DNA from: an uncultured Clostridia bacterium
Lineage (GTDB): Bacteria > Bacillota > Clostridia > TANB77 > CAG-508
Length of the DNA: 64,000 nt
Assembly (NCBI GenBank): GCA_947628085.1
Contig: CANQYM010000004.1
Location: 48,791-112,790, forward strand
Direction: 5' to 3'
This document shows, piece after piece, positions 17,285 to 17,564 of this stretch. Positions within the stretch are counted from its first letter, which is position 1. Each line of letters begins with the position of its first letter. Under the pieces are notes generated by a model, which saw nothing but the letters and a program-made list of their open reading frames with translations, did no database searches and had not been told where the DNA came from. The translations under genes were made by a program, and so were the position numbers.

Positions 17285-17314
17285 TTTGACAAATTTTATC
17301 ACTTATGTTATCTT
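17285..17314 (+). promoter_or_regulatory. Candidate sigma-A promoter for the aro leader transcript
   Basis: A TTGACA -35 element is followed by a 17-18-nt spacer and a TTATCT/TATCTT -10 element. This places a predicted transcription start about 15 nt upstream of the uORF RBS. Confidence 0.4.
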
Positions 17315-17348
17315 ATTTCTAACGTAAAATGATAAGGAGAATAAAGAT

Positions 17349-17453
17349 TTGAAAAAAACAAACAATTATGCAAATTTTAATTACTTCTTTAGTAGCTATA
17401 ACTTTTTTAAAGATTATAGTTTATTTGCATATAAATTTGTTTTTAGTGAGTAA
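17349..17453 (+). CDS. Candidate Phe/Tyr-rich leader peptide (34 aa) upstream of DAHP synthase
   Basis: A TTG start sits 9 nt after TAAGGAG. The translation is MKKTNNYANFNYFFSSYNFFKDYSLFAYKFVFSE, with 8 Phe and 5 Tyr out of 34 residues. A terminator follows 27 nt downstream. Confidence 0.45.
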   Translation: MKKTNNYANFNYFFSSYNFFKDYSLFAYKFVFSE

Positions 17454-17479
17454 AATTTTTATTTAATATTTTTAAATTT

Positions 17480-17511
17480 GGGATTCACTAAAAAGGTGAA
17501 TCCTATTTTTT
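17480..17511 (+). terminator. Intrinsic terminator/attenuator between the leader ORF and the DAHP synthase gene
   Basis: GGGATTCAC-taaaaag-GTGAATCC is followed by TATTTTTTAT. The left arm and loop (TCACTAAA) can alternatively pair with TTTAGTGA at the 3' end of the leader ORF. Confidence 0.6.
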
Positions 17512-17564
17512 ATGCAATATATAATTATTAATTTTACAAAATTTAAATTAGGGGGAAAATAAAT

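Follow-up and report, generated by a model that had tools for sequence, protein, structure and literature searches.

How does a low-GC Clostridia bacterium adjust the first enzyme of aromatic amino acid synthesis to its supply of phenylalanine (Phe, F) and tyrosine (Tyr, Y)? The question is raised by a stretch of 64,000 nucleotides (nt) from an uncultured Clostridia bacterium (contig CANQYM010000004.1, positions 48,791 to 112,790; "the window" in what follows), in which a gene for 3-deoxy-7-phosphoheptulonate (DAHP) synthase is preceded by an element that spans 17286-17511 on the forward strand. The element consists of a promoter, a Shine-Dalgarno site, an upstream open reading frame (uORF) that starts with TTG, and an intrinsic terminator, and it ends 53 nt 5′ of the DAHP synthase gene. 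We consider it likely, judging from its sequence and from the comparison with related loci, that the element is a ribosome-mediated attenuator of transcription, of the leader-peptide kind, which responds to the supply of charged tRNA-Phe and tRNA-Tyr and controls a monocistronic DAHP synthase gene of the aroFGH type. The parts of the element, their conservation, the alternative pairings, and the covariation between them are all read from sequence and comparison. The features by which one would recognize such an attenuator are found together at this locus: a short open reading frame (ORF) near the promoter with its own ribosome-binding site, an enrichment in Phe and Tyr codons, a terminator before the gene, an antiterminator that excludes it, and a hairpin of the kind known as 1:2.

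The leader and its gene

The element opens with a sigma-70-type promoter at 17286-17314, in which the −35 box TTGACA (17286-17291), a 17-nt spacer, and the −10 box TATCTT (17309-17314) give 10 of 12 matches in a consensus scan. An extended −10 TG is present at 17306-17307, two bases 5′ of the −10 box, and transcription is predicted to start near 17321. By reading of the sequence, a Shine-Dalgarno site, TAAGGAG, lies at 17333-17339 and is followed after 9 nt by the TTG of the uORF, which the ORF list places at 17349-17453 (34 codons plus TAA, with the translation MKKTNNYANFNYFFSSYNFFKDYSLFAYKFVFSE). Eight of the 34 codons are for Phe and five for Tyr (38%), at positions 7, 10, 12, 13, 14, 17, 19, 20, 23, 26, 28, 30, and 32. 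The stop codon is 25-26 nt away from the stem of the terminator, which the consensus scan locates at 17479-17511: an 11-bp stem (17479-17489/17495-17505), a loop AAAAA, and a T-run at 17506-17511, spelled TGGGATTCACT-AAAAA-GGTGAATCCTA and then TTTTTT. It is the sole terminator-like site in 16800-19000, where shuffled sequences have a mean of 0.5.

The regulated gene would be the DAHP synthase gene at 17565-18605, which starts with ATG at 17565, has a Shine-Dalgarno site AGGGGG at 17550-17555 by reading of the sequence, and encodes a 346-aa enzyme of the aroF/G/H (class I-alpha) type. The assignment comes from matches to Pfam DAHP_synth_1 and to NCBIfam TIGR00034 aroFGH (256 bits, against a cut-off of 173); a look-up of the exact sequence of the enzyme returned no record. 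An earlier reading of this DNA, made from the sequence alone (the sequence-only reading), had described the TTGACA/TATCTT promoter, the 34-codon ORF with TAAGGAG, 9 nt, TTG and 38% Phe plus Tyr, an intrinsic terminator between leader and gene, and a class I DAHP synthase downstream. We find every one of these parts; the gap between stop codon and terminator, given there as 27 nt, differs trivially from the distance that we measure.

Conservation of the leader

Is the leader maintained by selection? A scan of genomes with the enzyme as query provided 80 loci, with enzyme identities of 62-81%, mostly from metagenome-assembled genomes (MAGs) of uncultured Clostridia, Oscillospiraceae, and Acutalibacteraceae, and in most of these loci the enzyme gene is part of an operon or stands behind a short leaderless spacer. 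The nearest relatives of the window's DAHP synthase come from MAGs labelled "uncultured Clostridia". A protein search combined with inspection of gene context finds the same cassette before the orthologous enzyme gene in three lineages: L081-84 (enzyme identity 98%, leader peptide MKKANNYANFNYFFSSYNFFKVYSLFAYKFVFSE), L085 (81%, MKIKNNSRANFKFYFSFGFYFDQGLFAYDFVFDE), and L086-88 (79%, MKKENNCAKFNFFSFNFSYFFSYGQFAYAFFNE). The cassette-bearing lineages have flanking genes of no relation to those around the window's leader, which leaves the DAHP synthase gene as the only constant neighbour; thus, the leader travels with the enzyme gene. A further nhmmer search with the alignment of the four leaders (window, L081, L085, and L086) over the related loci and the window reported only the copies already known. 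The sequence-only reading had proposed, as a check, to look for an aromatic-rich uORF before orthologous genes; such a uORF is present in three lineages, and it is absent in many close relatives.

Aligning the leaders brings their −35 boxes, Shine-Dalgarno sites, TTG starts, and TAA stops into register, with AGGAG or GGAGG at the equivalent position in L081, L085, and L086. A promoter of the form TTGAC(A/T)-17-(−10) is found about 60 nt 5′ of the uORF start in all six leader-bearing lineages. Inside the uORF there are three indels, each of 3 nt, and past the stop codon the indels are of arbitrary length (10-34 nt). The fraction of Phe and Tyr stays at 35-39% in these leaders, which we refer to as family 1 (13/34, 13/34, 12/34, and 13/33), while the aromatic positions in the middle of the peptide shift. 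These observations (indels of 3 nt, start and stop codons that are kept, and a steady Phe plus Tyr content with moving positions) point to a translated leader under selection for its composition, and not for its peptide sequence. The two ends of the peptide, MK.K.NN..A.F and FAY.F.F.E, are conserved. They coincide with RNA helices, and synonymous changes are lacking in them (as in the two Ala codons, both GCA, that contribute the G-C pairs), and for these reasons we attribute their conservation to RNA structure.

Two arrangements seen in leaderless relatives deserve description in their own right. In L216, region 1413-1500 (identical in L217; the enzyme is 77% identical to the window's and 86% to P0005) has a promoter TTGACA-17-TATATT in the same ATGTTAT context. 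The hairpin there has ATTCACTAAA...GTGAAT in common with the window terminator, and together with its T-run it occupies the space between the −10 box (about 10 nt upstream) and the Shine-Dalgarno site of the enzyme gene (5 nt downstream); the uORF region of about 150 nt between promoter and hairpin is gone. From its sequence, this arrangement looks like a decayed attenuator. In L224 (1348-1500) and L218 (735-760), the enzyme gene is in an operon aroC-aroQ-DAHP synthase-chorismate mutase, and the spacer before it opens with TTGAAAAATAAT... (MKNN...), like the start of a family-1 leader, with no aromatic codons. The resemblance in sequence may be that of a leader remnant, or it may be chance.

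Three mutually exclusive structures

The leader as a whole folds with −42 kcal/mol, z = −4.45 relative to shuffled sequences. In the window, L081, L085, and L086 alike, the minimum-free-energy structure is a long imperfect hairpin that encloses the uORF, followed by the terminator. In the window this hairpin, which we call P1, extends over 17339-17464 (−25.7 kcal/mol) and is made of helices 17339-17350/17453-17464, 17354-17362/17436-17444, and 17367-17375/17423-17431, and of an apical stem 17395-17405/17409-17420. The apical stem-loop (17395-17420, helix 6 of our alignment test) lies within the F/Y-rich codons 16-24. On the four-sequence alignment (A2), P1 and the terminator are 87% paired, and sliding the partner strand by 1-3 columns lowers this to 39-51%. 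Changes on both sides are seen in seven pairs of P1 and the terminator, among them four of the 11 in the apical stem and two in the terminator. The terminator hairpin has −13.9 kcal/mol, and the orthologous terminators differ in sequence, with compensatory changes.

The sequence-only reading had also proposed that TTTAGTGAG pairs with TCACTAAA to form an antiterminator that excludes the terminator. That pairing is present, extends to 11 bp, and is conserved. Its 5′ strand ("region 2" in the pairing test), UUUUUAGUGAG at 17440-17450, is made of the final 11 nt of the uORF before the stop codon, and its 3′ strand ("region 3"), UUCACUAAAAA at 17484-17494, of the inner left arm of the terminator plus the loop. 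All 44 of 44 cells are paired over the four sequences, as opposed to 39-62% after a shift of the partner strand by 1-3 columns. At one position the pair is A-U in two sequences but G-C in the remaining two, and at five positions a compatible change is found on one side. The free energy of the duplex is −9.8 kcal/mol in the window, −7.9 in L085, and −7.7 in L086, which is in the top 0.3-0.6% of background 14-mers from the same sequences (0.3% for the window); the folding energies that had been suggested as a check are thus −13.9 kcal/mol for the terminator and −9.8 kcal/mol for the antiterminator of the window. In every sequence the 5′ strand ends at the last sense codon (..GAG UAA).

The antiterminator overlaps the terminator stem at 17484-17489 and P1 at 17440-17444 (5 nt). 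Because of these shared nucleotides, P1, the antiterminator, and the terminator are mutually exclusive, in the classical manner of 1:2, 2:3, and 3:4. P1 went unnoticed in the sequence-only reading, and on the folding model it would supply the 1:2 anti-antiterminator or pause element that was missing there.

Does a ribosome on the uORF select between these structures? For the ribosome we assumed a footprint of about −15 to +13 nt relative to the A-site codon. Placed at any of the aromatic codons 10-26 (9 of the 13), it either lies over the 5′ arm of P1 or falls within the loop, in both cases away from 17440-17450; placed at the stop codon, it masks that segment. We then folded the RNA as it would be during transcription, cut before the right arm of the terminator. 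Masking the footprint at codon 10 brings the antiterminator into the minimum-free-energy fold of all three of window, L081, and L085, and moving the mask to the stop codon removes it from each of them. Such co-transcriptional folds back the model in part; they are noisy from alternative pairings in AT-rich RNA, those of L086 especially.

How the attenuator would work

The geometry suggests the following order of events. Transcription would start at about 17321, and the first 190 nt or so of the transcript would carry the uORF with its 13 Phe and Tyr codons. Region 1 would be the 5′ part of the uORF together with the spacer next to the Shine-Dalgarno site (17339-17375). Region 2 would be the 3′ part of the uORF (17423-17464), including the last 11 coding nt at 17440-17450; region 3, the left arm and loop of the terminator (17479-17494); and region 4, its right arm (17495-17505), which is followed by the T-run. 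If the uORF is not translated, regions 1 and 2 would form P1, and regions 3 and 4 the terminator. When both Phe and Tyr are ample, the ribosome would reach the UAA and cover 17440-17450, 3:4 would form, and the transcript would end near 17511. When Phe-tRNA or Tyr-tRNA is scarce, the ribosome would stall at an aromatic codon within 10-26, blocking P1 and leaving 17440-17450 free to pair with 17484-17494 before region 4 is made. No terminator would then form, and transcription would read through into the DAHP synthase gene.

P1 would have two roles in this scheme, as anti-antiterminator and as the 1:2 hairpin at which RNA polymerase pauses to let the ribosome catch up; its action as a pause hairpin is plausible from the folding model. 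Translation of the uORF, stalling on it, pausing of the polymerase at P1, and a response to Phe and Tyr in vivo are what we infer from this arrangement.

Aromatic codons in AT-rich DNA

How surprising is a uORF with 38% of aromatic codons? The window has a GC content of 26.5%, base composition alone leads one to expect 16% of aromatic codons (F+Y+W), and the binomial probability for the uORF is p = 0.0018. Even so, 5 of the 283 ORFs of 25-45 codons in the window reach at least 38%. The enrichment in Phe and Tyr codons by itself is weak evidence in DNA of 26.5% GC, and not convincing, and the weight of the argument lies with the comparison of loci; the caution of the sequence-only reading about AT-rich DNA was justified.

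The combination of features is much rarer. We scanned for an ORF of 8-50 codons, at least 30% aromatic, with a Shine-Dalgarno site and a terminator within 150 nt. Over both strands of the 64-kb window there is one occurrence, the leader. In about 600 kb of related loci, the plus-strand matches are almost only leaders 5′ of DAHP synthase genes, and the minus strand has zero matches. Two further scans used sequence patterns: GCAAANTTTAAN{30,55}TTTGCATAT in metagenomes gave at least 120 matches, none of which, among those listed, adjoins a DAHP synthase gene, and which we ascribe to chance; TTTGCATATN{6,9}TTTNNTGAGTAA in viral contigs gave 7 matches, all chance.

Before DAHP synthase genes in genomes of higher GC content we find leaders of the same design, in L049 (43% GC, leader MNNKFFNYFYYFGKGCRHMR), L070 (49% GC, MRANKFFYYFYYFAKGCPSSVNSRA), and L236 (49% GC, from the viral-contig scan, MTQTYKYTFAYFYFDPSFYTGPVCVRRASE). 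All three come with a promoter some 60 nt before the uORF, with a Shine-Dalgarno site, and with a terminator, and Phe and Tyr make up 30-35% of their codons. Such a fraction of aromatic codons in genomes of 43-49% GC cannot be explained by AT bias, and the main explanation by chance is thereby removed for the class. In L236, folds with the ribosome-masked nucleotides excluded make a clean switch from antiterminator to terminator, as the attenuation model predicts.

These leaders have features of their own. The ones in L049 (1958-2100) and L070 (2731-2875), both from MAGs of 43-49% GC, form a second Phe/Tyr leader family unrelated to the first (M..NKFF.YFYYF.KGC...), and have the block GGACAGTCCGCAT in common. 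In both, a conserved GGGCUGCC(C)GU in the uORF could pair either with GCAGC beside the Shine-Dalgarno site or with ACGGACAGUCC, which abuts and overlaps the base of the terminator. L236 (1260-1490, IMG/VR UViG_2799112491_000004) is a third variant with a GC-rich terminator, on a contig catalogued as viral; there, the hairpin that encloses the uORF pairs with the Shine-Dalgarno site itself.

Known leaders and precedents

Is this a leader that has already been catalogued? Leaders for Phe, Trp, His, Leu, and Thr, and the Lactococcus leu/phe leader, are all families in Rfam 15. Rfam reports no leader family in the window at the gathering threshold, nor in 17200-17620 at E-values up to 10, and no family 5′ of the enzyme gene in 39 related loci. 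Thus, the element is neither a T-box nor a catalogued amino acid leader.

The closest analogues by design are the Escherichia coli leaders pheL-pheA, pheM-pheST, and those of the trpL type. Like them, the window element has, close to its promoter, a short ORF in which codons for the product of the pathway are frequent, and an intrinsic terminator after it. Also in common are a 3′ part of the leader that pairs with the 5′ arm of the terminator, such that a stalled ribosome selects the antiterminator, and a 1:2 hairpin that forms without translation. There is no similarity to pheL in sequence or by Rfam model. With 15 codons, pheL is shorter than the uORF of 34 codons, and it has one Phe run where the uORF has mixed Phe and Tyr over codons 7-32. 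In contrast to pheL, the 1:2 hairpin here encloses the whole uORF plus part of the spacer between Shine-Dalgarno site and start; the target is DAHP synthase and not chorismate mutase/prephenate dehydratase; and the host is a low-GC, Firmicute-like gut organism. With these differences, the pheL-like attenuation put forward by the sequence-only reading is supported by conservation in three lineages, by the antiterminator pairing, and by the F/Y-rich leaders in genomes of higher GC content.

A leader peptide before a DAHP synthase gene has an established precedent in Corynebacterium glutamicum, where the leader peptide aroR exerts a negative control by Phe and Tyr over aroF (DAHP synthase) (PMC7356990 and PMC3890552, which cite Neshat et al. 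2014); the control is described as translational (PMC7356990). The likeness to the window element, a leader peptide directly 5′ of the gene, is one of function only. The host there is a high-GC actinobacterium and the control translational, whereas the canonical intrinsic terminator of the window points to transcription.

Another published system is the candidate motif uORFC-13-1 (Brewer et al. 2021, RNA Biol), with 24 representatives in the low-GC Acholeplasma and in environmental DNA, found exclusively 5′ of aroF (PMC8632094). It is described as having −35 and −10 boxes, a ribosome-binding site, a start codon, a U-run coding for Phe, an adjacent terminator, and an additional paired substructure (PMC8632094). 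Every feature described in that text is also found in the window element, a comparison by description only, and by this analogy the window element may belong to the same class. The hosts appear different: compared with Acholeplasma, the window has VanW-like, SpoVB-like, and CotH genes, and looks to be from a wall-bearing, Clostridia-type organism. In the Acholeplasmatales and Anaeroplasma loci that we examined (L052 and L054), there is no such leader.

Leader-peptide attenuators for histidine have been predicted in several Firmicutes, in the Bacillus cereus group, Peptostreptococcaceae, Erysipelotrichales, and the class Clostridia (PMC9413887). They have in common with our case the attenuation by a leader peptide with terminator and antiterminator, lineages that lack the usual T-box or repressor control, and a patchy distribution; they differ in their histidine codons, in acting on the his operon, and in sequence, which is unrelated to that of the window leader. 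Classical attenuation in Firmicutes is therefore rare and not unprecedented. The sequence-only reading had presented such attenuation as unusual in a Firmicute. That T-box, TRAP, or repressor control is the usual means there holds; the novelty was overstated, given aroR-aroF, uORFC-13-1, and the His leaders (PMC7356990, PMC8632094, PMC9413887).

T-box and TRAP systems in Firmicutes have the same position, a 5′ leader with a terminator, and the same physiological purpose. The T-box model RF00230 has no match in the window, and the same search did find T-boxes in L006 and L008. TRAP-type control we rejected, as reading the sequence reveals no regular array of (G/U)AG triplets. The T-boxes of L006 (1870-2085) and L008 (4036-4283), both Ruminococcus/Oscillospiraceae loci, lie directly 3′ of the DAHP synthase gene and would control the next gene; judging from these matches, the aromatic-pathway neighbourhood in these relatives does use T-box control, though not for the DAHP synthase gene. 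ZMP/ZTP riboswitches are found on the opposite strand in the spacer 5′ of the DAHP synthase gene in L029 (2746-2828, minus strand) and L043 (2753-2835, minus strand), and belong to the divergent neighbour gene.

Weighing the alternatives

Several observations speak against attenuation by a translating ribosome. The leader is absent from many close relatives (L003, L089-L095, and L216-L228), and is to that extent dispensable and patchy: L003, the closest of the 80 scanned loci (81%), does not have it, and of the 11 close relatives examined for gene context, nine are leaderless, with the gene in an operon or behind a short spacer. The covariation comes from no more than four distinct sequences, of three lineages; the pairs of the antiterminator are mostly A-U, and the structure that was tested on the alignment had itself been modelled on one member of it. 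The antiterminator of L086 spans just 8-9 bp and is absent from the constrained minimum-free-energy fold. At equilibrium, the full-length leader forms the terminator wherever the ribosome is placed, P(terminator) being 0.9-0.98, and the switch would therefore have to be kinetic, as it is in trp and phe attenuation. Finally, Bacillus subtilis reportedly transcribes and translates without coupling the two, and such uncoupling would hinder classical attenuation unless the polymerase pauses.

Could the leader RNA respond to something other than the ribosome? It could be a structured cis-regulatory RNA that controls the terminator when a protein, a tRNA, or a small ligand binds P1, the ORF being incidental to a leader rich in U and A. 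P1 is indeed strongly conserved in nucleotides, with UGCAAAU and AUUUGCA invariant and with GCA, TTT, and TAT codons that show no synonymous changes; the apical helix covaries, the fold is unusually stable (z = −4.45), and the C-terminal FAY.F.F.E is explicable by RNA pairing rather than by peptide function. Against this, the uORF keeps its stop codon and its Shine-Dalgarno site, from which the TTG is always equally far, the indels within the frame are all of 3 nt, and the Phe and Tyr density holds at 35-39% as the middle sequence changes. The three unrelated leader sequences before orthologous genes (L049/L070 and L236) have only the F/Y-rich uORF, the terminator, and the overall design in common, and neither a T-box nor any other Rfam family matches. 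We regard this explanation as unlikely. The ribosome could also be the sensor of something else, namely general translation stress or ribosome-targeting antibiotics, as in leaders of the ermL or bmrB type. Ribosome-mediated attenuation in Firmicutes has so far been documented mostly at antibiotic-responsive genes (PMC4191407, PMC4335068). Here the regulated gene is the first enzyme of aromatic amino acid synthesis, the leader variants have nothing but their richness in Phe and Tyr codons in common, and no arrest motif is conserved, all of which makes a stress or antibiotic leader very improbable.

That the ORF is a chance product of AT-rich DNA, the hairpin a terminator or insulator of the upstream recombinase gene, and the DAHP synthase gene transcribed from another start, we find barely credible. 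Similar aromatic fractions do occur in the window (the 5 of 283 above), the stretch from the recombinase stop (17247) to 17479 holds no further terminator, and there is a weak promoter-like site at 17533-17560; yet ORF, Shine-Dalgarno site, and frame are kept at 79-81% enzyme identity next to different upstream genes, the promoter 5′ of the uORF is kept in all lineages, and so is the antiterminator complementarity, at the same position. The hairpin as a mere recombinase terminator was rejected, as promoter, uORF, and hairpin move together into other genomic contexts. We give as little credence to a functional small protein, be it the 34-mer, whose N- and C-terminal residues are conserved (MK.K.NN..A.F ... 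FAY.F.F.E), or a hydrophobic peptide in an alternative frame from ATG 17368 (MQILITSLVAITFLKIIVYLHINLFLVSKIFI), which by eye is open in L085 and L086 too, with a terminator that just ends that gene. A phmmer search with the 34-mer against 1.84 billion representative proteins reported 0 matches, the element is found only directly 5′ of DAHP synthase genes, and the conserved ends of the peptide coincide with RNA helices. The alternative frame (17368-17466, plus strand, 32 aa) has no Shine-Dalgarno site, and its end is variable (it runs for 32 codons in the window, for about 60 in L085, and into the enzyme frame in L086); we rejected it as a gene on these two grounds, and from its sequence it is probably a by-product of U-richness. 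In L086, the gene call fused this frame to the enzyme, which produced the 401-aa model P0008.

Surroundings of the locus

A tyrosine recombinase gene lies upstream of the leader, with its stop at 17247, and the DAHP synthase gene is followed by an Mbeg1-like gene, which has a promoter to itself; the DAHP synthase gene would thus be a single-gene unit. Between its stop codon and the Mbeg1-like gene there is a strong promoter-like site, TTGAAA-17-TATAAT (11 of 12 matches), at 18618-18646 on the plus strand, and the consensus scan detected no terminator 3′ of the DAHP synthase gene. Elsewhere in the window, a giant ORF of 4520 aa (44915-58477, minus strand) has as its sole Pfam match one N-terminal type I dockerin domain (residues 246-294), which suggests a very large protein of a cellulosome or of the cell surface.

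What the leader means

The kind of control proposed here is already known; the element itself, on the comparison of sequences, is real and conserved. As the concept is a textbook one, the gain is incremental. The element was missed by both gene callers and by Rfam, and it offers a template for annotating MAGs: a uORF dense in Phe and Tyr codons, a Shine-Dalgarno site, and a terminator. Among the "long" models of DAHP synthase genes, some (the 401-aa P0008, for one) are mis-started across the leader.

If the attenuator works as we propose, it would be a cleanly delimited case of classical amino acid attenuation in a Firmicute-type gut anaerobe, with a dual Phe/Tyr sensor at the committed step of aromatic synthesis. 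It would add to the scattered hints, from the His leaders in Clostridia and Bacilli and from uORFC-13-1, that outside of Proteobacteria and Actinobacteria attenuation by leader peptides is wider than annotation suggests. A more tentative idea, which we would sooner doubt than adopt, is that the window leader and the variants in L049/L070 and in L236 stand for classes of Phe/Tyr attenuators that are not yet catalogued and are distinct from uORFC-13-1, which have arisen or spread repeatedly before aroFGH-type genes in uncultured low-GC gut Clostridia, and which enclose the whole uORF and part of the initiation region in one long hairpin. If such classes do work, these Firmicutes would reach, by pausing that depends on a hairpin, a synchrony between ribosome and polymerase that is sufficient for classical attenuation, despite the uncoupling reported in Bacillus.

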